A stretch of DNA of 64,000 nucleotides from Escherichia phage vB_EcoM_G2540. Of the stretch, positions 1 through 59,826 are shown one piece after another (positions within the stretch are counted from its first letter, which is position 1; every line of letters begins with the position of its first letter). The stretch is taken from sequence record MK327936.1; one strand, written 5' to 3'. The position numbers and the translations under genes are program-made. The notes beneath the pieces were generated by a model, which was given only the letters and a program-made list of their open reading frames with translations, was not told where the DNA came from and made no database searches.

Positions 1-2178
1 TTAGGCCGCAAGGGCCTTCATAGTTTTAGCGATTTGGGAAACTTCATCATCACTTAAAGAGTTGCGATAACCGATGAAGTCGGAAACAATACGGAATTTC
101 TTGGTAAACTCAGCAACCATTTTATCACTGTTTTTTGAAGCATTATTTGATAATATATCAAAAAGATTAGTTACTGTCCAGATGTCATGACCGATGGTAT
201 CTTTTCCACCATTAAAATATACGCCGCGCAATGAACTAACTATATTAGCGAGTCGTGTATATTCTTCAGAAACTTCATCTGTACTGAAGTACTTCATCAT
301 AAAATCTAGTTCAGGATACTTGATAATTTTATCAATATATCGTTGAGCTGAACTTGAATAACCTACATACTTATCATAATCTACATCATCAAAAGCATCT
401 ACATATAAATCACGCAAAGCTTCAAAAATACATTGGCACTGACCGAGTTCTTTTACCTTTTTCTGCAAAAGCGGACGAATAACATAAAACTCATTAATGC
501 CAATAAGATTAGCCATACGAATCAAAATATTCATAGATGGATGACAAAGAGATGTAGTACCATCCATAGAGAAAATATCAGAACGATGCATATACGCTAC
601 ATACCCAGTAATTTCATCTGCTTCTGATGTGAGCGTAAATAATTCCTCTTTTTCCCAGCGCCCGTCTTTAATTTCAAACTTAAATGCTGTAGCAGCTTTA
701 GGACGAGGAGCTTTACTTTTAACTACCTTTGGAATATAGCTTTTAACTAAAGCTTCAATTTCTGACAAATAATGAATGTTAACTTCATCACTTTCAAACA
801 TCGCCATAATATCAGGAAGCAAATCAATCTGCGATTCTACTTCTGGATTAATAAACAGAAGGCGTTCGTTGTGATGAATATTCAAAGTGTTATTAAATTC
901 ACTATCATCTAACGCATGTGCTAATCCACGGACAATATTAACACGATTTTTAATATTATCAATAACGATATTAATTTTTGTTGCATTAATACCAAACAGA
1001 CGATAACTTGATGCAACGGCTGAAGTTTCATGACTTTGCTTAATGCGCTTCAGTCGAGGGTCAAGATTTACTTCATACACAACTCCTGCATTGCATAACT
1101 TACTGTCAGGTTCAAACATGCTCTGCATCTTTTTATATGACAGATTTTTAGTCGTAAATTTGACTGAATTACTAATCATATAATCTCGAGCAGAATACCC
1201 CATCTTCATCAATTCACGATATGTATGACGGGGAGATGTGGATTCTTTAAATCGTTTTACATCTTCATTAAATGCTTTCTCACTGAGTTCTTTAACTCGT
1301 TCAATAATATTTTTACGAGTACGATCATCCAGTGAAAGAGCCTCGCGAGATGGAGCAATATCAAGTGAACCCATTGGAAACTTAATGTAATTCACTTCAT
1401 TGCGAATGCTTAGCCAGTTACGGTCTCTAATAACACCATCGATAGGATAAACAATACCGCCATAGATAGCATATAATCCACCACGATCAGGCCAGTATCT
1501 TTCTGGATTTACACCGTAATAGTCATTAAAATCCGGAAAATAATCAATTTCGCGGTCAAGACCATTAATGATAGCCAAATCTTTGAATGGTCGCATGATA
1601 TAAGAAACTTCATAAGCAAAGTTTCTAAAGTCTTTTTCTTCAACTGGAACTACGATTTCAATACCAGTTTTATCATCTGGACCCATTTCTTTTACGAATG
1701 TAGGTTTAATCTGTGGACCATCACCATCCATGTAAGCTACATAACCACGAATTTCACCTTTATGATACGAAGTAATACTAAATGTATCAGTATAACTAAA
1801 CGGAGATTTAGAACCTAAACCAAACCCGCCAATAAAGTCATTAGATTCAGCCTTAGATGAACTGAAGTATGAATTATATAACCCAGGAGAATTATCATCA
1901 CCCTGAATATCAAAATCACTCATACCCGGACCAAAATCTCGACAAACAAATCGCGGATCTAATCGTCCTGGAACTTGTATGATAAATTTTTCAGGATTTC
2001 CATTAAGTGCATGGGCATCAATCATATTAGTAATTAATTCACGGACTACTGCACGAATCTTGTTTGTATACAAATCAGATGACAGAATTTTAAATACTTT
2101 AGGAGATGCTGTGATGCTAAATGCTTTTGATTTAGAACCATTGCCAAGAATTGTTTCTTTTTCAGTGGTGATAATCAT
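1..2178 (-). CDS. rIIA: rIIA protein, 725 aa
   Basis: 725-aa ORF ending at window position 1; length and N-terminus ([14 protein letters not shown]...) match recalled T4 rIIA. Confidence 0.85.
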
Positions 2179-2188
2179 AATTTCCTCA

Positions 2189-2392
2189 TTAATTCATATT
2201 ACGCTTAATAACTTCAGCAACTTCTAGTAATTCATCTTTAGTTGCAGTGTCGGATTGAATTTTATCTCTAATATCTTTAAAGCGGTTTTTAAATTCTTCG
2301 GCTTCTCCCATATCGAAAAAGCGTTGAATGATTCTATATTCTCGATGAACTGCTTTATCAAAAAGTTCTAAATTTACTTTATATGATTTCAT
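2189..2392 (-). CDS. small conserved protein downstream of rIIA (rIIA.1 position)
   Basis: 67-aa ORF in the rIIA.1 position by synteny. Confidence 0.55.
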
Positions 2393-2417
2393 TTCAATAT
2401 CCTCATTTGCCCAATTA

Positions 2418-2447
2418 ATTATACCACATCCTTGTGGTAAAGTAAAC
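2418..2447 (-). promoter_or_regulatory. T4-type early promoter
   Basis: minus-strand -35 GTTTAC (plus gtaaac 2442-2447), 18-bp spacer, -10 TATAAT (plus attata 2418-2423) preceded by GTGG; upstream of rIIA.1/rIIA. Confidence 0.6.
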
Positions 2448-4267
2448 TACTGGCTCATCCATTCTTTACGAAGGTCAGCATTATCTCCCATGAGCATTTC
2501 AAAAAGCTCTTTCCAGTTCTCAGGAAGTTTAACAACATCATATACTGGATTTTGAATCATCTCACGATATTCAGATTTTTCCAAAGAGCCAAGTCCTTTA
2601 ATATAACGGATGCTATGTTTAGGTAGAGCATCTTTAGCACTCTCATATTCAGCGACTGTATAAAACCATTCTTGTTTTTTACCAATCTGTGCGATGATTA
2701 CAGGAGTTTTGACAAAGCGAATTCGTCCTTGCTCAAACAGTTCTGGCCAATTACTAAAAAATCCAAGCAGAGAAGGATAAATGCTTCCTAGACCATCATG
2801 GTCAGCATCAGTCATAATAGCAATATTATGATAATTCAAGTTTTCAGCTTTTTCACCGAGAACTAATCCAGTGATTGCGCAAATATCAAACAGTTCTTTG
2901 TTTTTAAGCATGTCAGCATATGACATACCCCAACTGTTGAGAACTTTACCACGTAATGGATAACCACCGTGAAGTTCTTTATCACGAACATCAATAAGAT
3001 ATCCGATAGCCGAATCACCCTCAGTCAAGAAAAGAGTAGTATCAGCATCTTTACCACAAAGATTCGCTTTAATATGTTTATGAACCTTAGCTTTAGAAGC
3101 CTTTTTAGCTGCTTTAGTTTCTGCTGCTTTTTCTGCCGCTAATTTACGAGCCAAAGCAGCTTCAATAATCGGCATTAGAATTGCTTCATTATTTAGAATA
3201 GCACGTGAAATCTTTTTAGCATCAAGTTGAATATGACTACGGATTTCACCAAATGGAGAAGTCAAACGCTCTTTAGTTTGAGAATCAAATCGCATGTTTT
3301 TCATATCACGGACAAACATAACGATAGTCAAACATTCTTTAACGCGTGCTTTAGTCACATCAATTTTGAACTTACGTTTGATTTGTGGAATAAGGTCTTC
3401 ACAAATATCATCCATAACACAGTCAATGTGATGGCCACCATTCTTAGTGTGAATGTTATTCACATAAGTTAATTGACGAAAACCATCCGGTGAACGACCA
3501 ACCGCAATAGAGCAATTTTCTTGTTCTTGAACGATAGCATGCTCATCATATTGGCGTGCATATTTCTTAAAATTGCCCTGAACCTTTTTACCATTAAAGG
3601 TAAATTGAATATCAGGATAAACTACTGCAAGTGTCTGGAGACGATCTAGTGTAATGTCAAGATAAACTTGGGACAGCTCATTAGTTTCAAATGACATAAA
3701 ATCAGGAATGAAAGTAACGCGAGTTCCTTTCCATTTTCCTGGAATAGTTTCCCATGATTTATTTTCCATGCCATTTGAACAACGAACTACAATATTATTT
3801 TGACCATCACCAGTTTCACCGACAAACATCACAGAAAAAATGTTTGTCAAACTAGAACCAACACCATTCATACCACCGGTGACGCGTTCTTTATCATCAC
3901 CGAAGTTACCACCTGCTTTTGGAATAGTCCAGGCAGCAACAGGACCAGGAATTTCTTCACCAGTAGGTGTTTTGACCATCGCTTGTGGAATACCGCGACC
4001 GTTATCTTCAACTGTTACTTGATTGTTTTTAATAGTAATATTAATTTTATTTGCGAATTTAAACTTAGTACGAATACCTTCATCTACTGAGTTATCGATA
4101 ATTTCATCAATAAGCTTAACAAGACCAGGTACATACTGAACACTTTCCCATTTACCAAACAGAAAGCGCTCATGCATTTCATTAGCAGAAGAGCCAATAT
4201 ACATGCCGCTACGCTTTTTGATATGTTCAATATCGCTCAGAATTTTAATTTCATTCTTAATCATCAC
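2447..4267 (-). CDS. 39: DNA topoisomerase II large subunit (GyrB-like ATPase), unsplit 606-aa form
   Basis: N-terminus MMIKNEIKILSDIEHIKKRSGMYIGS..., GHKL ATPase motifs (EDNGRGIP); single ORF covers what T4 splits into genes 39 and 60. Confidence 0.85.
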   Translation of the reverse strand: MMIKNEIKILSDIEHIKKRSGMYIGSSANEMHERFLFGKWESVQYVPGLVKLIDEIIDNSVDEGIRTKFKFANKINITIKNNQVTVEDNGRGIPQAMVKTPTGEEIPGPVAAWTIPKAGGNFGDDKERVTGGMNGVGSSLTNIFSVMFVGETGDGQNNIVVRCSNGMENKSWETIPGKWKGTRVTFIPDFMSFETNELSQVYLDITLDRLQTLAVVYPDIQFTFNGKKVQGNFKKYARQYDEHAIVQEQENCSIAVGRSPDGFRQLTYVNNIHTKNGGHHIDCVMDDICEDLIPQIKRKFKIDVTKARVKECLTIVMFVRDMKNMRFDSQTKERLTSPFGEIRSHIQLDAKKISRAILNNEAILMPIIEAALARKLAAEKAAETKAAKKASKAKVHKHIKANLCGKDADTTLFLTEGDSAIGYLIDVRDKELHGGYPLRGKVLNSWGMSYADMLKNKELFDICAITGLVLGEKAENLNYHNIAIMTDADHDGLGSIYPSLLGFFSNWPELFEQGRIRFVKTPVIIAQIGKKQEWFYTVAEYESAKDALPKHSIRYIKGLGSLEKSEYREMIQNPVYDVVKLPENWKELFEMLMGDNADLRKEWMSQ

Positions 4268-4316
4268 TTATCCTCGTTTGGTTTCGGGAATATTATACTC
4301 CGGTAATCATAAAGCT

Positions 4317-4334
4317 AAAGGCCCGAAGGCCTTT
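4317..4334 (-). terminator. intrinsic terminator hairpin
   Basis: aaaggcc-cgaa-ggccttt stem-loop (UUCG tetraloop on the transcript) immediately 3' of the 4334..4603 ORF. Confidence 0.5.
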
Positions 4335-4603
4335 TATTTAAAACGAATAGTCGAATCCTTGAAGAATAGTCCAGAACATACTGTTCCTTCTACTTTCTGC
4401 CCAGTAGGTCCAATAGCACGAAATCCAGTATGCTGGAAATCATTTTCAGAGCAACCGAACCAATTATATCCAGTGATTTCAATATTAGTAAAACCACTTG
4501 AAGACAAAACTTTGGTTGCATTATCAGCATCAGTACATCCTATTAAAGACACTGCTAATACTAATGCTGCGATAGAACGATTAATATATTTCATAATTTT
4601 CAC
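4334..4603 (-). CDS. putative lipoprotein, 89 aa
   Basis: signal peptide with lipobox-like LIGC motif (MKIMKYINRSIAALVLAVSLIGC). Confidence 0.5.
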   Translation of the reverse strand: MKIMKYINRSIAALVLAVSLIGCTDADNATKVLSSSGFTNIEITGYNWFGCSENDFQHTGFRAIGPTGQKVEGTVCSGLFFKDSTIRFK

Positions 4604-4971
4604 TTAAATTTAATGGCTTGAAGAAGACTAATAATTCTCAAGCGACTTCCTTCATCTTTAACTGTAAAAGAAAGAGGGTCACCAGATTTCATAGTGATAG
4701 TGCATTCAAAAGCAAAACCTTCGGGAACTTCTTCGAAGAAGTCAAATTCTTCATCATAAATTAGAACATTACTCTGAAAACTGTGAAGAATTTTTCCGTC
4801 ATTTCCAGATGCTGTACTAATCATTGTAACATTATTACCTTTCATATCTTCAACGATAAATTCGCTTGTAGATATTACAGCATTAATAGAACCATTCCTA
4901 TAAATAGCAGAAAATAGATATTTCTTTTCTTCACCTTCGCGAATGCGATATTTCTTACCGATTTTAAACAT
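4600..4971 (-). CDS. hypothetical protein, 123 aa
   Basis: ORF tightly packed with neighbours (start overlaps stop of upstream ORF). Confidence 0.45.
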   Translation of the reverse strand: MFKIGKKYRIREGEEKKYLFSAIYRNGSINAVISTSEFIVEDMKGNNVTMISTASGNDGKILHSFQSNVLIYDEEFDFFEEVPEGFAFECTITMKSGDPLSFTVKDEGSRLRIISLLQAIKFK

Positions 4972-4973
4972 AA

Positions 4974-5150
4974 TTACCCTTTAAGTAAGTCGTAAAATCC
5001 GCCATTCACATGCTTAGGGGCAGAGACTAACCGAATAGCAATCCGATGACAATCAGGACATACATCAGTATCTCTTTCAGAAATTTTCTTGATTTTTTCG
5101 TATTCTTTTGCGCAGTCTTTTGATTGACATTTATAATCATAAAGCGGCAT
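4974..5150 (-). CDS. small zinc-ribbon protein, 58 aa (below the ORF-track size cut-off)
   Basis: hand translation MPLYDYKCQSKDCAKEYEKIKKISERDTDVCPDCHRIAIRLVSAPKHVNGGFYDLLKG; two CxxC pairs; fills the gap between flanking ORFs. Confidence 0.45.
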   Translation of the reverse strand: MPLYDYKCQSKDCAKEYEKIKKISERDTDVCPDCHRIAIRLVSAPKHVNGGFYDLLKG

Positions 5151-5152
5151 AA

Positions 5153-5566
5153 TTATTCCTTAAAGTGAGCTTTCAACATCTGATACAAGGACCATGCCTG
5201 TTCATCATTTTCAATAGTAACTTTCATTACAGGGAATTTAGATTGATCAGTTATCGGTGCAGATTCTTCCTGCTCTTCAGCTGCCTGGTATGGATTTTCA
5301 ACTTCATTAAAGAATTCAGCTTCATTCGATGAAAGCCAAATAAAATCTTCATCCAAAATATCTTTACCAGAAGATAGTACTAAATTTCCAGCAAATGACA
5401 TAATTTTAATAGGACGCCCAAGAGCATCCACATCTAAAATTTTAAAAGGATGCATACCTAAACGGCGTGCATAGATTCCGTTATCAGTATGGTCTTTAAT
5501 AAAATTTTCTTGAGCTTGTTTATTTTTAAACTGATACCATTTATTAACTTCAAATTTAATAGCCAT
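5153..5566 (-). CDS. hypothetical protein, 137 aa (goF position by synteny)
   Basis: ORF in the position and approximate size of T4 goF; no motif recognised. Confidence 0.4.
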
Positions 5567-5781
5567 TAATAAATTTCCTTCCAGTAAGTTGTACCATCTT
5601 CAGTGATTTCACGAAATACACCGTAAATTGGTTGTTTATCCCCAACCTTTTCATACACATAAACCGAAGTCAAGTGAGTAAACTTAGCAGTGTGTTCCTT
5701 TTGAACTACTACCAAATCTGGATCGAATAACACATCTTCAAATTCGTCATTAGTGCAGTTCTGAACAATTTTACGTTTCAT
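5566..5781 (-). CDS. hypothetical protein, 71 aa (cef position by synteny)
   Basis: 71-aa ORF, size and position consistent with T4 cef; sequence identity not verified. Confidence 0.35.
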
Positions 5782-5953
5782 TACAATTTCCTCGTTAATT
5801 GAACATTGGAGCGATGCGTTTCAGAAGAGTAGCAGCACCTTTGGCAAATTTTCCATTTTATTCTCCAAATTATTTTCTATATCAGTAGTTGATATTGATA
5901 TAGTACCATAATCAACTACTGATGTATATAGTTTTATGAAAAAATTTTAAACT

Positions 5954-6445
5954 TTATGCATAGCGAGCTTTGCTGTAGTGTTTAATCCAACTTTCAGGAA
6001 TGACTTTGTATGTTCCTAAAAATACCGCGTTGTATAACTTAACGCCATCTTCTACCCATTGATCAGTAATGTATGCACACATAGCGCGAGTACGCTGAGG
6101 AAGTGGTTGTCCACCTTCGGTAAATTCAAACTCATAAGGAGCAATGAACTTGATAGCTTGACCAAGTTTCCACTTAAAGTCTACACCTACATGCGAAGTA
6201 TCAATCGTTTCAATTCCTTTAGCAGGAACAGCTTTCAAAAACGCAGGCTCAAGAAATTTCCATCGAACATAACCAAACTGGGGCTTAGACATTCCATCTT
6301 TAGCAATGATACGTACTTTTACTTCAGAATCTTCATCTTTAACACCATGTTTAAGCTGAATGCTTACAACTTCGACCAATTTTCCTGCTGCTTTAGAACG
6401 GGATTTATCAGATACACGAGCAATTTCACCGATATTAATATTCAT
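5954..6445 (-). CDS. motB: MotB-like protein, 163 aa
   Basis: size (T4 MotB 162 aa) and position; a frameshifted paralogue with a similar C-terminus lies immediately upstream. Confidence 0.5.
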   Translation of the reverse strand: MNINIGEIARVSDKSRSKAAGKLVEVVSIQLKHGVKDEDSEVKVRIIAKDGMSKPQFGYVRWKFLEPAFLKAVPAKGIETIDTSHVGVDFKWKLGQAIKFIAPYEFEFTEGGQPLPQRTRAMCAYITDQWVEDGVKLYNAVFLGTYKVIPESWIKHYSKARYA

Positions 6446-6489
6446 AATTATCTCTCACTTGTTAAAAAGATTTTATACTCCACAGGACC

Positions 6490-6519
6490 ATTATACTCTG
6501 GTCCCAAGAGTTTGTAAAC
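6490..6519 (-). promoter_or_regulatory. T4-type early promoter
   Basis: plus gtaaac 6514-6519 (-35 GTTTAC), 18-bp spacer, plus attata 6490-6495 (-10 TATAAT); upstream of motB. Confidence 0.5.
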
Positions 6520-7066
6520 TAGCTTAAACGAACATTAATCACTGCGCTACGAGGAACTACAGAGTATTCTCCAGCATGAACTACGTTCAGAAGTTCAACG
6601 CCATCTTCAATCCACTGGTCTGTTACCCAACCACAGATAGGATTATCAAAAGGACGACGGATAGACACAGCAGCACACAACAGGTCTGTAGGGTCTTGTT
6701 CTTCAACTTCTTGGAACAGGATGAACTCATCTTCATAAACCAGGTTTTCTTTATTTTGTTATTATCTAACCGGCGACCGTGGATGACGTAAGATTTGTCA
6801 AACCACTCACTTTTGGCAAATTCTTCAACAATAAATTCGCCTTCGCCAAAAACATCAGTCAGAGTTTTATGACCAGAAATCAAGGCATTAGTTTTAATTT
6901 TAGGTTCAACCAGTTTGTAGGTTTTGCCGATTTCAATAGCGGTAGTCATAATAGGTTCCTTAATTTCCAGTGGTTTAACAGGGCATACATAAGTGCTTAC
7001 AACATCAAAATCAATCAGTTTAGCTACCGGATTTGGTATGTATTCAGGATTATAATTAAATTTCAT
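6519..7066 (-). pseudogene. motB-family paralogue interrupted by a frameshift
   Basis: N-terminal frame (6623..7066) runs into a junk tail; a second frame (6519..6758) with no Met encodes ...CGWVTDQWIEDGVELLNVVHAGEYSVVPRSAVINVRLS, matching the MotB C-terminus; frames switch in an A/T-rich tract near 6745-6775. Confidence 0.5.
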
Positions 7067-7068
7067 AA

Positions 7069-7569
7069 TTATCTCATTTCAATAAAATCTACGAGTTCAG
7101 CATGCGATTTGCGGAACATTACTTGGTGCCCACCAATGATAACTTCATCTTCAGGAACTTCGTATACAGCGAGATAAAATCCTTTAGAAGATAATTCTTC
7201 CCGCTCTTCTCGTGTGAACCATCTCATCATATCATATTCACTAGCGAAAGCAAAATGATAAAGACCTATAAACCATCCTGGAATATGATATTCTACTCCA
7301 ACATAATCTTTCTTGAACTTAGTATTAATTACTATATTAGCGTTTTTAACTAATAGTTTATCTTCGTGTGGTAAAGGAATTCTTTTATTATTATCGCTAT
7401 GATGCATAAAATTAGGTCTGTCATAACCTACGTGTAATAGCCACTCTTCGCTCCATGAATCTATTATACTCCTGTACGGCGTTATTTGAACACAAAGATT
7501 TCGACGTATTGTTATAGCATCTTCATAATCAAGAATACTAAACGATGATTCAACACGATAAATTTTCAT
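7069..7569 (-). CDS. hypothetical protein (~166 aa from internal Met)
   Basis: ORF 7069..7608; start placed at MKIYRVESS (GAGGA Shine-Dalgarno upstream) because the ORF-track start overlaps the promoter. Confidence 0.45.
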   Translation of the reverse strand: MKIYRVESSFSILDYEDAITIRRNLCVQITPYRSIIDSWSEEWLLHVGYDRPNFMHHSDNNKRIPLPHEDKLLVKNANIVINTKFKKDYVGVEYHIPGWFIGLYHFAFASEYDMMRWFTREEREELSSKGFYLAVYEVPEDEVIIGGHQVMFRKSHAELVDFIEMR

Positions 7570-7596
7570 TTTATTATCCTCAGTAGCTATGGTGTT

Positions 7597-7626
7597 ATAA
7601 TACCACAACTAACCGAGGAAGTAAAC
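7597..7626 (-). promoter_or_regulatory. T4-type early promoter
   Basis: plus gtaaac 7621-7626, 18-bp spacer, plus ataata 7597-7602 with GTGG context. Confidence 0.5.
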
Positions 7627-7632
7627 AACTTT

Positions 7633-8316
7633 TTATCGTTTTGTTGTAAGAGATAGAGGATCGCAATCTTCCTCTGACGGAGCATCTTCAAGACCCATAG
7701 CATATCGCAAAGCATACTTCATCATCAGAATATCTTTCGCACAGTCATGAATAGAATCATGCGCAACGAATCCATCTAAAGTTCCTTTTGGAAGAGGACA
7801 CGTGGTCATATCACGAACAAGCAGAAGTGCTTCAATTCTGGTACGAATATCACGCTGATTCCAGAATTTACATGGTTCTAACTTAAATGTGTCAAGCTCA
7901 TTCTCAGAAACACCATTAAGACGTTGAATATCACGAATGAGATCGACTAAAATTGGAAAATCAAACGACATTCCACGGCACCAGCCTTGAGATTTCCAAG
8001 GATCGATATTATGTGCATTGATGTAATCATTAAATTTTGCAATACCATCGATGGTGCTTACATCTTCATCTGATGGTGCAATATTTTTTCGAGCTTCAGG
8101 AGACTGATTTTTCCACCATTCGATAGTGCTTTTAGTAAAAAGACGATGTCCTTTTTGGCTTTTTAAATCAAATTTGATTTTAATGCCGCGTGAAACTAAT
8201 TCATCAAATGTTTCAACTACTTCTGGGTTAGGGTCAAAAGCAATTACAGCTAAATCAATAACAGCTGCTTTTTCACCACTTCCCATTGTTTCAAAATCTA
8301 TAATAAAATCAAACAT
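7633..8316 (-). CDS. dexA: exonuclease A (DEDD 3'-5' exonuclease), 227 aa
   Basis: 227 aa as in T4 DexA; N-terminal acidic exonuclease motif (FDFIIDFETMG); synteny upstream of dda. Confidence 0.75.
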   Translation of the reverse strand: MFDFIIDFETMGSGEKAAVIDLAVIAFDPNPEVVETFDELVSRGIKIKFDLKSQKGHRLFTKSTIEWWKNQSPEARKNIAPSDEDVSTIDGIAKFNDYINAHNIDPWKSQGWCRGMSFDFPILVDLIRDIQRLNGVSENELDTFKLEPCKFWNQRDIRTRIEALLLVRDMTTCPLPKGTLDGFVAHDSIHDCAKDILMMKYALRYAMGLEDAPSEEDCDPLSLTTKR

Positions 8317-8591
8317 TAAATTTTCCTTGCTAAATCGCGAATTTGACCTACAGTATAGTCTTGAATATAAACTTTATTAATAGGTTCATCAATAAATTTT
8401 GCCATAGATTCAATATCTTTTTGCATCTCTTCAAGACTGTATATTATCTTTAAAGCTTTTTCGCGAATAGTAATATTTTCAGGACCAGAATTTTTCTCAA
8501 TGACAGCTTTAACATTTGTCATAAGAGATTTAAACTGACACCAACTTAATTCAATCATTAATAACCGCCTTATAAAGATGGCTAATTTCAC
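8316..8591 (-). CDS. small hypothetical protein (start uncertain)
   Basis: one of three small tandem ORFs between dexA and dda; C-terminus resembles the next ORF. Confidence 0.35.
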   Translation of the reverse strand: MKLAIFIRRLLMIELSWCQFKSLMTNVKAVIEKNSGPENITIREKALKIIYSLEEMQKDIESMAKFIDEPINKVYIQDYTVGQIRDLARKI

Positions 8592-8811
8592 CTAAAATGT
8601 AATCACTGATTGTAACAGTTTTTACTTCACCACAAAAGAATTCTAACGCAATCAAATCTCGTTCAATTTCTTCCAATTGAAGCATTAACTTGCCTGATTC
8701 AATTTTCACGTTTTTGCGATTTTTACTATAAGCTATTTCATAAATTTCGCTAACTTTATCCTGAAGAAGATAAAACTGATCTTTAGTTATTTCCACGAAT
8801 AGCTTCCTCAA
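8551..8811 (-). CDS. small hypothetical protein (start uncertain)
   Basis: C-terminal motif ...ISDYILGEI resembles ...IQDYTVGQI of the downstream ORF. Confidence 0.35.
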   Translation of the reverse strand: MRKLFVEITKDQFYLLQDKVSEIYEIAYSKNRKNVKIESGKLMLQLEEIERDLIALEFFCGEVKTVTISDYILGEISHLYKAVIND

Positions 8812-9043
8812 ATTTAATTAGTAATTTACAGACACTTTCATCTAGTGTAATTACCGTATCTGTATTACTGTGATATGATTGTTTTTCAATTCGTTTAATT
8901 GCTAATATAGTATCACTTATAAGATAAAGCTTATGAAGGAGCTCAGCTCCTGTTACCATAACATTAAGATTATCTTGCTTATTAGTATGCTTCCTTATAC
9001 CATCTATTAGACGATTTAAATATTTTGAATTGATGTTAATCAT
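8783..9043 (-). CDS. small hypothetical protein
   Basis: 86-aa ORF in tandem array. Confidence 0.35.
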   Translation of the reverse strand: MININSKYLNRLIDGIRKHTNKQDNLNVMVTGAELLHKLYLISDTILAIKRIEKQSYHSNTDTVITLDESVCKLLIKFEEAIRGNN

Positions 9044-23125: not shown

Positions 23126-24203
23126 TTAAGCGGTGATATCGAGAACGCGAAGAAGCTCTTCTTGCCATTCTGATTTTAAACTTTGATACTTAAATAGGGT
23201 TTGATGTTGTATTGTAATCAATTCCCGCCTCAAGCACTCATTGGTTTTTAACTCATTTACTAAAGTTTCAAAATCATTTTTATTCTTAACGTAGAATCTA
23301 GGGTCGTCAATAATAAGATGCTCGCTATCAAACTCTTCATCGATAAGCATCACAGCATCTGATGCCATGGCCTCCCAGACTCTAATTGTGATAAAATTAT
23401 CATTGTAATCTTTATCACCAATGACTATAGTTGCTATCGCTTGGCTATTCGTGTCAATAACCAAATTTGATGCTATTTTTTTGACTGAATGATGGAGCTA
23501 CATTCCACGGAAATTTAGGATTTTTAAACTGTTTCTCTTTAATAGTTCCAAACATTTTAATATTTAAATTGGTATCAAAAAGAAATTCAACTATTTTAGA
23601 CTCTCGTTGCCCACCTCTAAACGCGCCGCAGTACACAACGTCATATTTTTTAATAGTTTGATTCGCAGGTTTAAGTTTCTGTGAATGAATAAAATATCTA
23701 TCTACAGGAAAGTAATCATACTCAAATTCTTTACCGTATCTTTCGGTTGTTTTCTTATGAGCCTTTTTAGCAATTTCTAGATTTCTGCCCTGAGATATTA
23801 CTTTAAAGTCAGATGACACAAATAAGTCTTCATCTTTGTATTCACTTGAAAATTTCTTTCTGCGAACTACCGGAAGAACTTGCATAAATCCAAGACGGCC
23901 ATCAGTAAAAATATAATAAATTTTACTTCTATATTCAGCCATCAATTTATATGAATTTAAAACGATTGGATTTTTCTTTCCACCGAAGAAATTGATAGCG
24001 CCATTAATTACTATTAGTCTATCGTATGAATTTATATCAGTTACTACATCAAATGATATAGTGTATTCAGTATTTCGCATTGAAATTATATCAACGGAAT
24101 GCCCTAATTCAGTTAAAGACCTGCCTATTAAAATAGTTTCGGCTGATGATACTATTTTAAAATCACTCACAGTATTACTTAAATTTAGAATAGCTATTTT
24201 CAT
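23126..24203 (-). pseudogene. bgt: beta-glucosyltransferase-like gene split by a frameshift in an A7 run
   Basis: 249-aa N-terminal ORF plus 112-aa C-terminal ORF together resemble recalled T4 beta-gt (~60% identity); frames switch at the T7 run 23476-23482; removing one base restores FSQKIASNLVIDTNSQAIA, colinear with T4. Confidence 0.65.
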
Positions 24204-25057
24204 GATATTTCCGTAACTTCAACTTTGTGAATAGCATTAAACTTATGAAATGCTTCTGATTTTTCTTTACGCGAAACGCACATGCGAAGAACCTTTAATG
24301 GCTCGTCTTCTTCACCCAACGATTTTCGTTTTTCAATATTAGAAGTTTTCCAACGAGCTTGCTCTGGAAACTCTCTATTGATTTGCTCAAGCGCTCTATT
24401 ATGTTTAGAATTACTACGAATTGAACTACACCCGCCAGGAGCTTGTGCTTTTCCAGATACAACTAGATATTTGAACAAGGCCAAATGCGGATAACCTTGA
24501 TTAATTAAATTGAGAAATGCATACATATCTTCGCATAAATCAATTTTTCCATACCCAATTTGTTCTGTCGTAAGTTTTCCGAGGTCATACCATGTATTCG
24601 TGAATCCATATGAATTTTCACGATAATTACCCCAAGATGAAGTAATTTTAAAAATTGGTAGACGAGCATGACCGTGATAATACCCGCAATCCATGGCATC
24701 TTCAACATATTGAATCAATTCATAGAACTGTTCACGAGTCAATTGATTGACTTTATCTACGCAACGCCGATCATCTCTTTTTCGCATTGAACTCATACGA
24801 ATAGTAGTATCATCGTCAATCATCCAGATTCGTTGACCTGCATACATATCAGTAATTGCTTTACGAGTACCAGCAATTCCATTTACATCATCAGGAATAG
24901 TTATAATTTTAGCTCTAGACCCATAGGCATCATAATAAGCTTTTTCTTCGTGTTCACGTACTACAATATGTGGTTCATAATCAGTCGGAAACATATCAAG
25001 GGCAGAAACTGCCCCTACACGTTGATAGCTTGGAATTACGAATTGAATCATTTCCAC
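24200..25057 (-). CDS. putative GT-A-fold glycosyltransferase, 285 aa
   Basis: N-terminal QFVIPSYQR resembles the GT2 VIPTYN motif; DxD-like IWMIDDDTT ~80 aa in; sits between bgt and gene 42. Confidence 0.4.
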   Translation of the reverse strand: MEMIQFVIPSYQRVGAVSALDMFPTDYEPHIVVREHEEKAYYDAYGSRAKIITIPDDVNGIAGTRKAITDMYAGQRIWMIDDDTTIRMSSMRKRDDRRCVDKVNQLTREQFYELIQYVEDAMDCGYYHGHARLPIFKITSSWGNYRENSYGFTNTWYDLGKLTTEQIGYGKIDLCEDMYAFLNLINQGYPHLALFKYLVVSGKAQAPGGCSSIRSNSKHNRALEQINREFPEQARWKTSNIEKRKSLGEEDEPLKVLRMCVSRKEKSEAFHKFNAIHKVEVTEIS

Positions 25058-26208: not shown

Positions 26209-26580
26209 TCAAATTTTTACGCATGAATTATAAGAATTCACTACATACTCCATCGGAGCATTTTTACCAGTACGCCATTGGTAATTATTAGCCCAATTAG
26301 CCCAAAGCTCGGCGCAGTAGTTTTCAATTTTTTCTTCGCGTGTAATTACATCCGAATTACGATATGCTTGAGCAGATTCATCTGGACGAATAGCTTCGTC
26401 AAAATTCGCCTGCATTTGTTCTACTGTTTGCTTTGGAGCTTCTTTATAACACTTGACATTAGGATTATAAAATTTGCTTGAACAGTTTACAATTTTTCCT
26501 ACATCAGACTGATTTACTACCGGTCCTTGAGCTACACAACCAGTAAGACCTAATGCAATAACCAAAATAGCGATTTTCAT
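26209..26580 (-). CDS. putative lipoprotein, 123 aa
   Basis: signal peptide with lipobox (MKIAILVIALGLTGC). Confidence 0.5.
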   Translation of the reverse strand: MKIAILVIALGLTGCVAQGPVVNQSDVGKIVNCSSKFYNPNVKCYKEAPKQTVEQMQANFDEAIRPDESAQAYRNSDVITREEKIENYCAELWANWANNYQWRTGKNAPMEYVVNSYNSCVKI

Positions 26581-53742: not shown

Positions 53743-54711
53743 TTATTTCAGAAGAGTAACCTCAGCGATTTCTTCCCAACCGTTTTTGTCGGTCATAATA
53801 AAGTCAGCAAGATAAAGAGCAGTACGCAGTGAAACATTGCGTAAACGATTAACATTAACTTTCATCCATGATAATGCTTTATAAGTTTCTTCATCAGAAA
53901 GACCGCGCTTTTGCATCATGTCGGTTGAAAGAATAACATCTTCAACCCTGACCATAATTTCTTCATTAGTGTGAACACCCAAATCTAAATAAACTGAGCG
54001 GGACACTAATGCTTGTAAATGTGGAGCAAGTTTAGTACCGCGGTCTAATTCGCGGTCAATGTCAACGTTTGTGATAAAAACAATCGTTCCTTTAAATTCA
54101 AACTCACGGTCAATGCCTTTTTCTTCTAAGTAAGAAGATGCAGTGCTCCAGCAGACTTTACGGGTCTCTCCAGTGTCCAGAGCAGCTTTTAGAAGATTAA
54201 GAATGTCCATATCAGAGAAAACATCCACATCATCAATCAAAAGGACAGAGTTCTCTTCACGATTATACCAAAGCTGCTCATAAAGACCAATACCAGAGAT
54301 TTTACCATTAATGCTTTTATATTCAATGTATCCAATATCGTTTGCTTTATTTAAAGCTTTATCTAAAGAATACGTTTTACCAATACCTGCTGCGCCAGAG
54401 ATAATTAATGAACGAATATTTCCATTAATAATACCATTCGTCATCATTCCCATAACATTAAATCTTTTATTAATGCGGGTTTTCATATCTTCATATGATT
54501 CTTTAACTTCTTCAACTTTTACACCATCATATGAAATATCTGATTTGTAAACCCAAACACCACGACGTTTACCGTCAATTTCAACAAAAACTTTACCATC
54601 TCCTTGTGCATCTACCGGAGCATTATCTGGGAACCATTCGCCTAAGAGCTCAAAAGTTCCAGAGATTTCTTTACCGAAGTAGATACCCTTATTGATAGTT
54701 ACAGTTTTCAT
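53743..54711 (-). CDS. P-loop AAA+-type ATPase, ~322 aa
   Basis: Walker A SGAAGIGKTYSL and Walker B VLLIDDVD; start placed at MKTVTINKG (GGAGAA Shine-Dalgarno). Confidence 0.55.
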   Translation of the reverse strand: MKTVTINKGIYFGKEISGTFELLGEWFPDNAPVDAQGDGKVFVEIDGKRRGVWVYKSDISYDGVKVEEVKESYEDMKTRINKRFNVMGMMTNGIINGNIRSLIISGAAGIGKTYSLDKALNKANDIGYIEYKSINGKISGIGLYEQLWYNREENSVLLIDDVDVFSDMDILNLLKAALDTGETRKVCWSTASSYLEEKGIDREFEFKGTIVFITNVDIDRELDRGTKLAPHLQALVSRSVYLDLGVHTNEEIMVRVEDVILSTDMMQKRGLSDEETYKALSWMKVNVNRLRNVSLRTALYLADFIMTDKNGWEEIAEVTLLK

Positions 54712-54747
54712 TTTATTCTCCAATCTCACATTTGTTTTGATAGGGTA

Positions 54748-54777
54748 ATAGTATCACACTACTACCCTTTTGTAAAC
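54748..54777 (-). promoter_or_regulatory. T4-type early promoter
   Basis: plus gtaaac 54772-54777, 18-bp spacer, plus atagta 54748-54753. Confidence 0.5.
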
Positions 54778-54780
54778 AAT

Positions 54781-55044
54781 TTATTTTAACGTTCGCCAAA
54801 TTTTTACTGCTTCACGGCGAGATACTTCTACAGCTCCAAGTTCTACAGCTTTTTGGCGTCGGCGAGCGTGTAAGTCATAATGTTTAATGCGTTTATCTTG
54901 AAACCAAGAACGTTTCATTCCTATTGCTTCTGCCATTTCATGAAGCTCTTCAATATCTCCATCAGTGAACATATGACAATTTTTAGTTGGATGACCGCGA
55001 AGTTTCCATCCATGATTCATTAAAACATCTACGTAAACTGTCAT
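54781..55044 (-). CDS. hypothetical protein, 87 aa
   Basis: ORF; His/Arg-rich. Confidence 0.4.
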   Translation of the reverse strand: MTVYVDVLMNHGWKLRGHPTKNCHMFTDGDIEELHEMAEAIGMKRSWFQDKRIKHYDLHARRRQKAVELGAVEVSRREAVKIWRTLK

Positions 55045-55190
55045 TGATTCTTCTCCAAATAAGTTTCGATAATTTTCTGAGCGAGATAAACTGCATTATC
55101 TTCAGTTGCATCTTCTAAGAAACTTTCAAAACACTCTGAAATTTCTTCTGTATCAATCAACTTTTTTACTTCAATTGGTGTAATTTTCAT
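55041..55190 (-). CDS. small hypothetical protein (~49 aa from internal Met)
   Basis: ORF 55041..55361 trimmed to MKITPIEVKK because upstream sequence is promoter/terminator. Confidence 0.3.
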   Translation of the reverse strand: MKITPIEVKKLIDTEEISECFESFLEDATEDNAVYLAQKIIETYLEKNQ

Positions 55191-55227
55191 TTTGTTTTTC
55201 CGTTTAAGTGTTTGTTTTGATAGTTGT

Positions 55228-55257
55228 ATAGTACCATAAAGCTTTATGCTTGTAAAC
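55228..55257 (-). promoter_or_regulatory. T4-type early promoter (repeated cassette family)
   Basis: plus gtaaac 55252-55257, 18-bp spacer, plus atagta 55228-55233. Confidence 0.5.
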
Positions 55258-55282
55258 AATTTTGTGAAAAATTTTTGAAATA

Positions 55283-55308
55283 AAAAAAGGGAGCCCGAAG
55301 GCTCCCTA
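55283..55308 (-). terminator. intrinsic terminator
   Basis: agggagc-ccgaa-ggctccct hairpin followed on the transcript by UUUUUUUAUUU; 3' of the 328-aa ORF. Confidence 0.6.
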
Positions 55309-56295
55309 TCATTTATAATAACTTCGGTGGTTTTCAAGATAAACCCTCTCAAGGAAGTCATCCCAAAAACCCATGTCTACTTTTTGCTGCATACCGTTCT
55401 TAGAAGCTTCAGTAGATGCTGCTTCTACTTGATCGACCACATCTTCCAAAAACTCTTGAACCGTTTTAAATGGATGTTTACCCAACTTCACGTCGAGAAT
55501 AAATGGAGCATCTTGGAGTGGATAAACCAAGTCACCAGTTTTGTAAATTTCCAATAGTTGGAGTCCACCACGGCAAGCATGACTCAGAGCTTTCCAGTCA
55601 ATACCTTCATTGGCTTCGGCCTTACGAGCACGTTCACCGTATTCAGCATCTAATTTGTTCAGTGACTGCTTAAGCTCAATAAGAGAAAGCGTTGTCTGAT
55701 ATTTACGACCCAACACTGTGTAGAACGTCTGTGGGCCTGTTTTCTCATGATTATGGAACACCCATTCACAGAATTCGTTTTCTGGAAGACGATGCTTAAT
55801 ATCTTCAACTTTAGTACGACGCTGCTTAATAGAACCATCTTCTTGGTAATCAACCCATTGCTCAGGGATTTGATTAACTACTTTCAATACATCACGTAAT
55901 GCAGCCAAACGAGAACCCTTAACGCCGTATTTAGAAGCTTGCTTACGGACATATCCTAAATAGGATTTCATGTTAGTCGTATAAAAACGAGAACGGTTGT
56001 CTTGAATAAACTTCCACACATCAGGCAAATCAGATTTAACCACTAGTTCAGGTGGAGTGTGAAGCATATCTAACGCTACAGTTTCACCATCTGCTGCTAA
56101 TTTAAAGAAATATTTAAGACTGTATAGTTCATGGTCAATATCATCTTTAGTGTTTTTAGATGATGTGTTGTTAGTGTTTTTACTCATGTGCTCTTTAACA
56201 TTTCCGATAAGAATATCACGAGCAGGAGGAACAAAGATTTCTTTAAAATCTACATCAGATTCTGGGGGTAGAAGTTCCATAAAGATGACTACCAA
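55309..56295 (-). CDS. hypothetical protein, 328 aa
   Basis: large ORF with no motif I can name; directly upstream of the AAA+ ATPase block. Confidence 0.5.
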   Translation of the reverse strand: MVVIFMELLPPESDVDFKEIFVPPARDILIGNVKEHMSKNTNNTSSKNTKDDIDHELYSLKYFFKLAADGETVALDMLHTPPELVVKSDLPDVWKFIQDNRSRFYTTNMKSYLGYVRKQASKYGVKGSRLAALRDVLKVVNQIPEQWVDYQEDGSIKQRRTKVEDIKHRLPENEFCEWVFHNHEKTGPQTFYTVLGRKYQTTLSLIELKQSLNKLDAEYGERARKAEANEGIDWKALSHACRGGLQLLEIYKTGDLVYPLQDAPFILDVKLGKHPFKTVQEFLEDVVDQVEAASTEASKNGMQQKVDMGFWDDFLERVYLENHRSYYK

Positions 56296-56319
56296 AATAG
56301 CTTTTCATTACTGTTTTCA

Positions 56320-56781
56320 TCATTCAGCCTTATATTCAATAACAGGACATACTTTAGCTTTACGAGCTTTTAAAAATTCAACGATAATCGATTTCTTGGG
56401 TTGAATAGGAGGTAAACCTTTATACGCCCTATCAATATTTTCTACGTGTAAAGCATAATCCTTTTTCCATTTATAATCTTTATATTTTTCACGCAGTTGT
56501 GCAGGAATAACAAATGAACCGATAATAAGTAAAACAAGCAAAATGGCAAGTATAAATGCTGATGGAATAAGAGTCCATAAACTACCAAAAATAAGCCATT
56601 TCTGTATGATTTCTGCGCAGATGATAGTTAGACCTACGAGTATAGTACATCCGAAAAAAGAAACGAAAAATGTAGGAATAACAATAGACCAAAAATACGC
56701 GCACAGTGTCTTAGGTCGTTTCCATTCATCATTAAACATTTTGAATAATTTATAATGCCAAGAGTTTTCATTAATAATCAT
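56320..56781 (-). CDS. membrane protein, 153 aa
   Basis: two to three predicted TM helices. Confidence 0.45.
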   Translation of the reverse strand: MIINENSWHYKLFKMFNDEWKRPKTLCAYFWSIVIPTFFVSFFGCTILVGLTIICAEIIQKWLIFGSLWTLIPSAFILAILLVLLIIGSFVIPAQLREKYKDYKWKKDYALHVENIDRAYKGLPPIQPKKSIIVEFLKARKAKVCPVIEYKAE

Positions 56782-56783
56782 AA

Positions 56784-57305
56784 TTATCCTTTCATTGAAG
56801 GTGTAACAGTTGTTAAATACTTAATCATAGCTTCAGCTTCTGATTTTGATAATGAAATTTCTCCATTGTTTTGACGAATAGAAATAAAATCCGGATGACG
56901 GTCACCACCAGCTTTTAAAACACACATATAAGTATCAGTTTCATCTTCAATATTTGAAATGATTGAAGCAGTTCCACATGAATGTGGTTTTTGATAAATC
57001 AATACAGCTTTTCTTCCACCGTTTGACTGTTCATAAACTTTTAACACATCAAACAAATCACTTCTTTTATCAATAGCTAAGATGTTGTTTTCATCTTCAA
57101 TGTTAAATCCTTCGGATACTTCATAAAGCGTTACCCATAAATCACCTATATCGATAGTAGCATTTTCCTTTCCATGACTTTCAAGAGCATGACAAATTTT
57201 CTTGATTTCATCATAACTCATTTTAATAATATCATCTCCTTGAATAAGGAAGATGTCATTTTTAAATTCAACACGAATTAAACCGCTTCCACTTGAAATA
57301 AACAT
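56784..57305 (-). CDS. hypothetical protein, 173 aa (paralogue pair)
   Basis: C-terminus ...SKSEAEAMIKYLTTVTPSMKG resembles that of the adjacent 188-aa ORF. Confidence 0.45.
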   Translation of the reverse strand: MFISSGSGLIRVEFKNDIFLIQGDDIIKMSYDEIKKICHALESHGKENATIDIGDLWVTLYEVSEGFNIEDENNILAIDKRSDLFDVLKVYEQSNGGRKAVLIYQKPHSCGTASIISNIEDETDTYMCVLKAGGDRHPDFISIRQNNGEISLSKSEAEAMIKYLTTVTPSMKG

Positions 57306-57311
57306 ATTTCC

Positions 57312-57878
57312 TCACTTTGAAATCATAGTTGGAATGGCAGAATCAAGATAAGTCTTTAGCGCAATAGCTTCGTCTTTTGTAAATGTAACAATATGTGCTC
57401 GAAAATCGTCAATTTGGCGAATAGTTAAGACATCTCCTTCTTCATAACATTTTGATACATTTAAAACAGTTTCATCATTCTGATCGCACTGATCGCAAGC
57501 GTTAGTAATAATAGCATTGCAATTTTTGAGCCATTTTAAACTATGTTTTCTTTCATTAGAATAATAAAAATATTTAATCTTAGCTATAAAACTATCCCAA
57601 TGGATAACTGATAAACACATTGACTCACTTTTAATATTAAATCCTGGGCATGAAGAATAAAAATGAATTTTGTGCTCATCATTGATGCTTACTATTTTAT
57701 CAGTATAAGGATATTCAATTTGGATTAAATGAACGATTTCACTAGGCGTAAAATATAGCATATCGTCTTCTTGCGTCAAACGATACATGTTATTTACTTT
57801 TTCTATAGCCAATTCACCAAAAAGCGGACTAACTTCTAATACTAATCGTTTCATATTGATTCTCTTCGACTCACTCAC
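57312..57878 (-). CDS. hypothetical protein, 188 aa (paralogue pair)
   Basis: C-terminus ...TKDEAIALKTYLDSAIPTMISK; probable GTG start with AAGGAG Shine-Dalgarno. Confidence 0.45.
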   Translation of the reverse strand: MSESKRINMKRLVLEVSPLFGELAIEKVNNMYRLTQEDDMLYFTPSEIVHLIQIEYPYTDKIVSINDEHKIHFYSSCPGFNIKSESMCLSVIHWDSFIAKIKYFYYSNERKHSLKWLKNCNAIITNACDQCDQNDETVLNVSKCYEEGDVLTIRQIDDFRAHIVTFTKDEAIALKTYLDSAIPTMISK

Positions 57879-58013
57879 AATTACATACTCCTTTGAATAA
57901 TATCAATAATGTTGTTCACCAGATTATAAGTAAACATTGGGTAATTATATTGAATCATCACATACACAACAAACAAAACTTTCATTCTCTTCTCCTTGAC
58001 CGTTGACAAGATT

Positions 58014-58043
58014 ACTATACCATAACCTTGTCAACTTGTAAAC
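58014..58043 (-). promoter_or_regulatory. T4-type early promoter
   Basis: plus gtaaac 58038-58043, 18-bp spacer, plus actata 58014-58019. Confidence 0.45.
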
Positions 58044-58208
58044 CATTAAATGACGTTTTCAATAAAATTCTGAAGCTTTGTGTGAGCATCAACCATAATT
58101 TTCATTTCTTCCTTTGCGAAAGCTGTACCTCTTTCCCGAGCAGAATACTCATAGTCAGAAACTGCATTAGCATATTCTTCAATTAGCTTCATTAAAAACA
58201 TTTGCTTT

Positions 58209-58439
58209 TCAGTTTTCATTATTCCACCTAATCATTTCAAGATATTGAACTAACTTAGCTTTGGATTTATCCAAATCCTTTTTAGCTGCTTCTATACCGT
58301 CGTATGAATATCCTTCACAGTGCTCAACTGCCAATTGATATGAATCTATTTCAATATCACGTGCTAATTTAATGATTTTTTCAAACTGTTCACGTGTTAG
58401 CATACTAAACTCTCGTATTATGATCAATAATTTCATCAA
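58209..58439 (-). CDS. small hypothetical protein, 76 aa
   Basis: ORF. Confidence 0.35.
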   Translation of the reverse strand: MMKLLIIIREFSMLTREQFEKIIKLARDIEIDSYQLAVEHCEGYSYDGIEAAKKDLDKSKAKLVQYLEMIRWNNEN

Positions 58440-58644
58440 GAAACATATCTAACGCTTCTAAAGCATTATCAACTTTAGCTTCAAATTTTTCAATACCTTT
58501 ATTTGCAATGCCTGCCGAAAACCAAGCAAAGTCACTAAGTTCCTCATCTGCTTTGCGAATTAAAGCTACCAATTCTTTAATTTTATCTGCTTGTTCAATT
58601 CTAGTCATTATTCCACCACATATGAAAGAGAGAATATTGCACAC
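58405..58644 (-). CDS. small hypothetical protein, 79 aa
   Basis: ORF. Confidence 0.35.
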
Positions 58645-58796
58645 GCCATATGAGTTGCAGCTTCATCACACATATCATAACGTTTCTTAAGAAGTTCTAC
58701 AAGTTCTTCACTAGTAACTTCATCCATGTCGACGAAAAAATCACCATTAATGATGACGTAGATATTTCCTTCTTGATTGAGTGCTTCAATTTTCAT
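58608..58796 (-). CDS. small hypothetical protein (~62 aa from internal Met)
   Basis: ORF 58608..58841 trimmed to MKIEALNQ (GGAG Shine-Dalgarno) because the upstream part overlaps the promoter. Confidence 0.35.
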
Positions 58797-58824
58797 GATG
58801 TTCTCCTCTTTATCCGATAGTTGT

Positions 58825-58854
58825 ATAGTACCACAGCTCAAACGGAAAGTAAAC
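58825..58854 (-). promoter_or_regulatory. T4-type early promoter (repeated cassette family)
   Basis: plus gtaaac 58849-58854, 18-bp spacer, plus atagta 58825-58830. Confidence 0.5.
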
Positions 58855-58864
58855 CGGCAAAATG

Positions 58865-58888
58865 AAAAAAGTCTCCCGAAGGAGACTA
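58865..58888 (-). terminator. intrinsic terminator
   Basis: agtctc-ccgaa-ggagact hairpin followed on the transcript by UUUUUUC; 3' of the 128-aa ORF. Confidence 0.6.
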
Positions 58889-58891
58889 ATG

Positions 58892-59278
58892 TTATTCGAG
58901 GGAAAGAAGATACTTACTCTGGTAAAACATTCCAGTAATATCATCTATCGTGCTTTGAATGGCTGGAGGCATTTCTTTATAAATGCTGTTAGATTGATCT
59001 AGTATGCGATCAATCATTTTAATTGTGTCGGTAGGAAGTTTACTGGCATCTGGAATTGAAGGCGTGTATTTTCTACCAGAATACCCCAAATATTGCTCAC
59101 CAAATTTATCAATCAAATCTGGCAACTCGGAGAAAATAAAATCGTATGCTTTGTGTCTAGCATAACTTTTAGTTTCAAAATGTGCAGAATGAAAATAAGC
59201 TTGTGCAGCCATTAATAAACCTAAGTATTCATCTGCCTTTGAAGGTTTTCCACTTTGTGAAAAGTCGCTGAATTTCAT
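58892..59278 (-). CDS. hypothetical protein, 128 aa (rI.-1 position)
   Basis: ORF directly downstream of rI. Confidence 0.45.
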
Positions 59279-59568
59279 TCAGTCTCCAATTTAATGTTCA
59301 TAATTCTAGCGTATGATTGTGCCATCTCCGCGCCTCGCTCTATACATTCAAAATCGGAAGAGCACGGGTCATTTTTATAAGTCGTTCGCATAAAACTATA
59401 GAACTGTTCAGATGATTCTACGCTTTTGTTTTCAAAAAGCATATAAACGTGTCTAATACCAGATTCCATAAATTTATCAAAATGAGAATCGACATTCGCT
59501 TCAATTGGTGGAGATAAAGCAAATGCTAATCCTAGCATGGCAAATAGTGCCGTTGCTTTTAAGGCCAT
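59275..59568 (-). CDS. rI: lysis-inhibition regulator RI, 97 aa
   Basis: 97 aa; MALKATALFAMLGL...[69 protein letters not shown] matches recalled T4 RI. Confidence 0.8.
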   Translation of the reverse strand: MALKATALFAMLGLAFALSPPIEANVDSHFDKFMESGIRHVYMLFENKSVESSEQFYSFMRTTYKNDPCSSDFECIERGAEMAQSYARIMNIKLETE

Positions 59569-59580
59569 AAAGGCCTCCTA

Positions 59581-59793
59581 TCATTTTTGTCCTGTATTTA
59601 CTTTATGCCGATGCACGGCCTTAACTTTATCAAGGTATTTTTCAAAATTTCGCAATCTAGTATAGTCTGCCGGAGATTGGTTGAGTGATACTTCTCGACG
59701 CAAAGCTGAAATGATATTTCCAACTTCCCTACGAATTTCATCTAATTGAAGAACAGTAAGATTGCGAAGTTGCTTTTCAGTTAATTGTAGCAT
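59581..59793 (-). CDS. small hypothetical protein, 70 aa (rI.1 position)
   Basis: ORF between the late promoter and rI. Confidence 0.4.
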
Positions 59794-59818
59794 ATATACC
59801 CCTTTAGTTAGATAAACC

Positions 59819-59826
59819 TATTTATA
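59819..59826 (-). promoter_or_regulatory. late promoter (TATAAATA)
   Basis: plus tatttata 59819-59826 is the reverse complement of TATAAATA; lies in the tk-rI.1 intergenic region. Confidence 0.5.

Follow-up and report, generated by a model that had tools for sequence, protein, structure and literature searches.

We found that the gene upstream of motB in Escherichia phage vB_EcoM_G2540 is an orthologue of motB.1 which is disrupted by a 1-nt deletion. The gene is located at 6519..7066 on the minus strand of the DNA stretch analyzed here (64,000 nucleotides of sequence record MK327936.1, referred to as the window). Alignment placed the deletion in a run of four T on the plus strand at 6745..6748 (A4 on the coding strand) where the relatives have T5/A5. 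The allele is rare among related phages and is linked to a haplotype block which the window shares with a second phage from the same sample. The deletion is likely a real inherited mutation that arose recently. We infer that the DNA itself, and not the assembly alone, has the deletion and that slippage was the mutational mechanism. On a plain reading this is ordinary gene decay, in which dispensable genes are occasionally hit by real slippage mutations. The A5 run would have lost one A where codon 107 meets codon 108, a change typical of polymerase slippage, and translation would yield 107 native residues followed by 40 missense residues and a stop. The phage would tolerate the loss since motB.1 is dispensable for growth and motB appears to keep its own promoter, and the deletion would travel with the 6.7-kb haplotype block of the two co-isolated siblings. 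The finding adds little new biology, as it concerns a loss-of-function allele of a known, dispensable gene and the paralogy of MotB and MotB.1 has already been published (PMC7827196).

The motB.1 locus and its relation to MotB

The genome is that of a Tequatrovirus (T4-like), and the locus belongs to its early block, which is transcribed leftward. On the minus strand the genes follow in the order dda, three small ORFs, dexA, motB.2, motB.1, motB, cef and goF, with dexA at 7633..8316 (minus strand). The upstream neighbour of the disrupted gene is an intact motB.2 orthologue of 166 aa (7069..7569, minus strand; phrog_1106, E=1.4e-55). Downstream, motB (5954..6445, minus strand) is intact with 163 aa, matches PF17613 over its full length with 312.9 bits and shares the C-terminal domain with motB.1. 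The order dexA-motB.2-motB.1-motB on one strand is the same in fFiEco06 and T4. Moreover, the orthologue carries the label 'MotB.1' in the fFiEco06 annotation, and the T4 gene at the equivalent position is motB.1.

The assignment was based on this synteny, on alignment with the intact ORFs of Paracelsus and PYps35T and on phrog_2333. As restored protein we used the Paracelsus allele of 182 aa, which differs from the window by the missing A alone, this being the sole difference across the gene. In a profile match, residues 1-180 of the restored protein aligned with positions 1-209 of the 210 positions of phrog_2333 (E=1.4e-88). The database search returned 232 homologues; the restored protein was 97% identical to cluster P0001, and the more than 100 clusters of 177-183 aa all contained PF17613. 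In the restored protein, PF17613 (motB) was found at residues 140-176 with 36.7 bits (gathering cut-off 25), and BLASTP against the window's own MotB gave 17/33 identities (E=2e-11). These two matches bear out the sequence-only reading of this region, which had proposed a MotB-family paralogue upstream of motB. In the Pfam search PF17613 had no match in the 147-aa ORF that the window really encodes.

Judged by its sequence, the locus represents motB.1 of this phage, a known gene and not a new paralogue, because the C-terminal domain shared by MotB and MotB.1 as well as the fold and the dispensability of MotB.1 have already been published. According to Patterson-West et al., a C-terminal domain is common to MotB and MotB.1, probably as the result of a duplication (Patterson-West et al. 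2021, PMC7827196). The gene motB.1 is early and non-essential (PMC7827196, PMC12152347), and T4 lacking motB.1 showed wild-type burst size and latent period (PMC12152347). T4 MotB, the PF17613 protein, binds DNA and co-purifies with H-NS. Its C-terminal domain is shared with MotB.1, whereas the N-terminal domains are unrelated, being KOW-like in MotB and LSm/SH3-like in MotB.1 (PMC7827196, PMC12152347). The LSm/SH3-like N-terminal domain of MotB.1 forms a barrel and has GoF and Frd.2 as relatives (PMC12152347). In line with this LSm-like GoF/Frd.2/MotB.1 family of the Tevenvirinae, residues 44-125 of the restored protein matched phrog_622 weakly. Unlike the members of this family, the protein encoded in the window is predicted to lose the last strand of the LSm-like domain.

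The closest known system is MotB.1 of T4, which has 143 aa in resequenced T4 (ADJ39729.1, QPI17238.1) and is encoded at the same place between motB.2 and motB. It is 60% identical to residues 103-153 of the restored protein (E=2e-21), and the C-terminal motif GWVTDQWIEDGVELLNVVHAGEYSVVPRSAV is common to both. Compared with T4 MotB.1, the proteins of the lineage studied here (177-183 aa) have an N-terminal extension of about 40 aa and a divergent N-terminal domain. In contrast to the T4 gene, the allele of the window is frameshifted at codon 108.

The frameshift and its predicted products

The gene spans 548 nt, which is no multiple of 3, whereas the intact relatives have 549 nt and 182 aa. In Paracelsus (MZ501096), PYps35T (MT515754), Ptacy1496 (PQ863253) and fFiEco06 (MG781190) one 549-nt ORF encoding 182 aa is annotated at this place. 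Alignment with the intact ORFs of Paracelsus and PYps35T revealed a single gap, by which GAAAAAC on the coding strand becomes GAAAAC. A family member would be expected to have an uninterrupted frame of about 177-183 aa; in the window the frame switches at 6745..6748 within the 548-nt span. Therefore, this is a disrupted allele that is unable to encode the family-typical protein. A homopolymer-associated frameshift in an A/T-rich tract and the two frames had been recognized from the letters alone; the switch had been placed at 6745-6775, a range that contains the gap.

Frame 1 of the gene (minus strand) reads MKFNYNPEY...NNKIKK and then TWFMKMSS...LSVVG*. According to the alignment with T4 MotB.1, codons 1-107 are in the correct frame (6746..7066, minus strand). 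They cover the N-terminal extension of about 40 aa and most of the LSm/SH3-like N-terminal domain. The out-of-frame tail (6623..6745, minus strand) comprises 40 missense codons and the stop at 6623..6625. It is hydrophobic with a GRAVY of 1.06 and rich in cysteine and leucine (TWFMKMSS...LLIILSVVG). Together, both parts form the 147-aa ORF at 6623..7066. An identical 147-aa ORF is annotated as 'hypothetical protein' (QBO65422.1) in the record of vB_EcoM_G2540-3. Both the ORF at 6623..7066 and QBO65422.1 are a truncated MotB.1, and the annotation of the locus should mark the gene as disrupted.

The other frame ends at 6519 with ...NLVYEDEFILFQEVEEQDPTDLLCAAVSIRRPFDNPICGWVTDQWIEDGVELLNVVHAGEYSVVPRSAVINVRLS*. 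It contains the orphaned segment of the MotB-like C-terminal domain (6519..6744, minus strand; NLVYEDEF...CGWVTDQWIEDGVELLNVVHAGEYSVVPRSAVINVRLS*), which was recognized by PF17613 and by BLASTP to MotB. This frame has neither ATG nor GTG. Its lone start codon is a TTG at 6680, which is not preceded by a purine-rich ribosome-binding site. On these grounds, we rejected the idea that the C-terminal domain is expressed independently.

For T4 MotB.1 the N-terminal domain has been described as residues 1-82 (PMC12152347). Mapped through the alignments, these correspond to roughly 43-121 here. An AF2 model was made of the intact homologue P0001; its mean pLDDT was 50.7, with 65-76 over residues 43-122 and values below 50 in the C-terminal domain. 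Between 43 and 122 the model has strands at 49-52, 77-85, 93-99, 104-109 and 118-120. The best PDB match of this low-confidence model in Foldseek was FeoA (6e55_A), which was not significant (E=0.08; probability 0.95, target-normalised TM-score 0.55). FeoA has SH3 topology, and the same nearest structural neighbours are given in PMC12152347, although the Foldseek E-value of 0.08 lacks significance. In the low-confidence model, which allows a rough placement only, the frameshift at codon 108 falls inside the predicted strand 104-109 of the N-terminal barrel and not in a linker or at a domain boundary. The last strand or strands of the barrel would thus be lost together with the entire MotB-like domain, which most likely makes the allele null or strongly hypomorphic.

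Downstream of the disrupted gene, a sigma-70-type early-promoter-like site was identified by consensus match at 6490..6518 on the minus strand (TTTACA-17-TATAAT, 11/12 positions). It stands between the stop of motB.1 and the start of motB, and its sequence is conserved in T4. This suggests that motB has its own promoter, in which case no polarity is expected from the frameshift and motB should be unaffected.

Rarity of the deletion and its linkage to haplotype blocks

The 60-mer with the run of four T was present in one of the 133 public phage records having this context, and the 61-mer with T5 was identical in 117 of them. Counting the window itself, two of 134 genomes carry the deletion. The one public carrier is vB_EcoM_G2540-3 (MK327944.1). 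In a large protein/contig index the truncated 147-aa product occurred on a single contig. Exact-pattern scans of IMG/VR gave no match for the A4 allele and one for the A5 allele, which is too few for use.

Between the window and G2540-3 there are no differences and no gaps over 1919..8664, a block of 6.7 kb which includes the deletion; within it, 5900..7700 matches G2540-3 to 100% at the same coordinates. SNP clusters flank the block. Beyond it there are a 232-nt indel and a divergence of 3-6% from G2540-3, and the annotation diverges beyond 8.8 kb. Therefore, two distinct genome records carry the allele. The idea that the window simply represents the G2540-3 record was rejected, since BLAST revealed a mosaic relationship. 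G2540 and G2540-3 have the same host and come from the same pig-manure sample (Korf et al. 2019), and their coverage was 537x and 410x, respectively (Korf et al. 2019 supplement). In that study PacBio RSII with HGAP3 or MiSeq with SPAdes was used per phage, and which phage was sequenced on which platform is not stated (Korf et al. 2019).

Outside the block, the window is 99.5-99.7% identical to G2540-3 over about 57300..63360, and KMB26 is its closest relative (98.9%) over 8-32 kb. The 232-nt indel that ends the G2540-3 block is marked by an extra 86-aa ORF (8783..9043, minus strand) between dexA.2 and dda. The window, Paracelsus, KMB26 and others have this ORF, whereas G2540-3, G8 and T4 lack it.

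To place the deletion among other changes of its kind, the window was compared with KMB26, Ptacy1496, Paracelsus, fFiEco06 and G2540-3. Including motB.1, there are four frame-altering homopolymer changes of plus or minus one nucleotide in 64 kb, all in accessory genes; such a count had been proposed as a check by the sequence-only reading. In motB.1 the change at 6745 (T5 to 4 T) is mid-gene and common to G2540-3. The second, in a T4-type bgt-like gene, had also been noticed from the letters and was found as a mid-gene T7 at 23476..23482, shared by none of 11 other records, all of which have T6. It splits the gene into ORFs at 23126..23464 and 23454..24203 (minus strand), and KMB26 has an intact ORF of 1077 nt. 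The third is located in imm.1 (26209..26580, minus strand), where T6 is reduced to T5 at 26214..26218; none of the 159 other records shares this, as they all have T6. It affects the last four residues only, and Imm.1 ends with ...SCVKI* in the window versus ...SCVKNLTK*. The fourth concerns an nrdC.11-type nucleotidyltransferase gene (55309..56319, minus strand). There, a change from G4 to G5 at 56264..56268 puts the first ~19 codons out of frame and is common to phage G9062.

The 249-aa bgt fragment is specific to the window. The T4-type bgt-like gene adjoins a T2/T6-type beta-alpha-glucosyltransferase-like gene (24200..25057), and both are located between uvsX and gene 42. The adjoining glucosyltransferase-like pair (23126..25057) is also found in KMB26 and about 10 other phages, and most relatives have one of the two.

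The sharing of the motB.1 and nrdC.11 changes bears on whether they are real. For motB.1, four further genomes of the same study (D5505, G29, G4500 and G9062) have an identical 41-nt context and were called T5. For nrdC.11, the G5 run was common to the window and G9062 only, among 495 records, and G4 was present in at least 484 of them. G9062 comes from the pig-manure sample of G2540 and G2540-3 as well. Over 54500..58500 the window differs from G9062 by 1 SNP, and G29 differs from the window at more than 100 positions. At nrdC.11, G2540-3 has G4 in an identical context of 20 nt on either side. The run in motB.1 thus has 4 T in the window and in G2540-3 and T5 in G9062, and the run in nrdC.11 has G5 in the window, G4 in G2540-3 and G5 in G9062. 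Since genomes from the same laboratory have intact alleles in an identical context, the frameshifts track haplotype blocks and not the laboratory or the context. At the level of the compared sequences, the allele pattern is one that fits inherited variants in a recombining local population, unlike systematic miscalls. The changes in motB.1 and nrdC.11, each of which the window has in common with a sibling phage, are therefore probably real. Comparing alleles across haplotype blocks in this manner offers a way of telling real frameshifts from pipeline errors without reads.

Alternative explanations

The main alternative is a sequencing or assembly artefact, by which the DNA would have A5 and an intact 182-aa motB.1, the homopolymer having been under-called in the consensus. 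PacBio consensus on glucosyl-hydroxymethylcytosine DNA could be the route. Several observations are consistent with such an error. The allele is confined to one of 133 records and to one contig, with the intact form present in more than 100 protein clusters. The change is a homopolymer difference of one nucleotide; apart from it, the gene matches intact alleles exactly and has no further signs of decay. One laboratory and study supplied both carriers, and PacBio RSII was used there for part of the phages. Further homopolymer changes are private to the window at 23476 (0/11 share) and 26214 (0/159 share), and G2540-3 has private changes at 18491, 18663 and 46440. Besides, there is a precedent at this very locus, since the T4 reference motB.1 has an extra G which is absent from 13 other records. 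However, the same miscall would be required in two different genomes at 410-537x, and T5 was called in the four genomes of this study that have the identical 41-nt context. Moreover, the sharing partner switches from G2540-3 at motB.1 to G9062 at nrdC.11 along near-identical blocks, which an error caused by context or platform would not do. The genomes of other laboratories likewise contain 2-4 private 1-nt indels per 50 kb, most of them in intergenic regions or at the ends of genes. As this rate is similar, such variants are normal, and a clear excess of private indels in the genomes of this laboratory was not seen when tested against other laboratories. We therefore regard an artefact as unlikely. 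The systematic sequencing indels that had been named as one of two options from the letters alone are argued against by the T5 calls of the same study and by the segregation of the motB.1 and nrdC.11 alleles with haplotype blocks.

The private 1-nt indels of G2540-3 (MK327944.1) were determined against at least 4 relatives, and two map close to the 3' ends of the 61.1/61.2 gene region.

A real deletion could also belong to a reversible system, in which dispensable early genes of T4-like phages contain short homopolymer runs that act as on/off switches (phase variation) and 'off' alleles circulate and recombine locally. We consider such switching quite improbable. The sequence-only reading had raised the related view of slippage-prone accessory genes. 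As a special property of these genes it was not upheld: the runs have only 4-7 nt, recoding signals were not detected and the alleles are rare, the motB.1 deletion occurring in 1/133 public records plus the window and the nrdC.11 allele in one other phage among 495 records.

Recoding would likewise accept the deletion as real and assume that the ribosome slips by -1 at A_AAG_AAA_A, or that the RNA polymerase slips, so that some full-length MotB.1 is made. From the sequence, a -1 shift at AAG or AAA restores the native frame and gives ...IKKNLVY... or ...IKENLVY..., and A_AAG is a weakly shift-prone lysine site in E. coli. However, the canonical heptamer pattern X_XXY_YYZ is missing from ATA_AAG_AAA_ACC. 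A 111-nt stretch comprising the surroundings of the site and the downstream sequence folds like shuffled sequence (z=0.23), and inspection of the sequence upstream revealed no Shine-Dalgarno-like stimulator. The A4 run is far below the length for efficient transcriptional slippage. In addition, 117 of the 133 relatives encode a single-frame protein with the same flanks, so that there has been no selection for a frameshift signal. In view of the missing heptamer, the missing structure and a two-frame layout in 2 of 134 genomes, we rejected programmed frameshifting as well as transcriptional slippage, and production of full-length protein from this allele is accordingly highly improbable.

Hardly more credible is a selected function of the 147-aa product which would explain its persistence in two phages: the strongly hydrophobic tail (GRAVY 1.06) could serve as a membrane anchor, the allele is common to two isolates, and C-terminal-only remnants of the family in RB69 (PMC7827196) mean that domain-level variants occur, but in the model the cut falls within a predicted strand of the N-terminal domain and not at a domain boundary, the tail is an accidental reading of the sequence coding for the C-terminal domain, the allele is absent from all other records, and linkage in the identical 6.7-kb block explains the sharing.

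The motB.1 gene of the T4 reference

A single-base change also truncates the MotB-like C-terminal domain in the T4 reference motB.1 (NP_049627.1, 119 aa). The reference records NC_000866.4 and AF158101.6 have an extra G, at about 7304-7305 of NC_000866.4 (ATTGGAAG versus ATTGAAG). Here, the T4 reference reads ATTGGAAGATGG and every relative ATTGAAGATGG. The reference MotB.1 therefore ends with ...WIGRWR* and has 119 aa and 13,804 Da, whereas MotB.1 of resequenced T4 and T4T has 143 aa, ends with ...WIEDGVELLNVVHAGEYSVVPRSAVVAILN and possesses a complete MotB-like C-terminus. The two cases differ in that the T4 reference has an inserted G 29 codons from the end in one sequence lineage, and the window has a deletion found in two different genomes. 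The 60-mer with the extra G was present in the two reference records only and absent from 13 other T4-type records. As these were sequenced independently, the extra G is probably a legacy error in the T4 reference.

This matters to those who work on MotB.1, since the final 28 residues of the MotB-like domain are missing from the RefSeq protein. In PMC12152347, MotB.1 constructs were designed from NC_000866.4 and produced by gene synthesis, and the protein is given as 13.8 kDa. Therefore, that study probably examined a C-terminally truncated protein.
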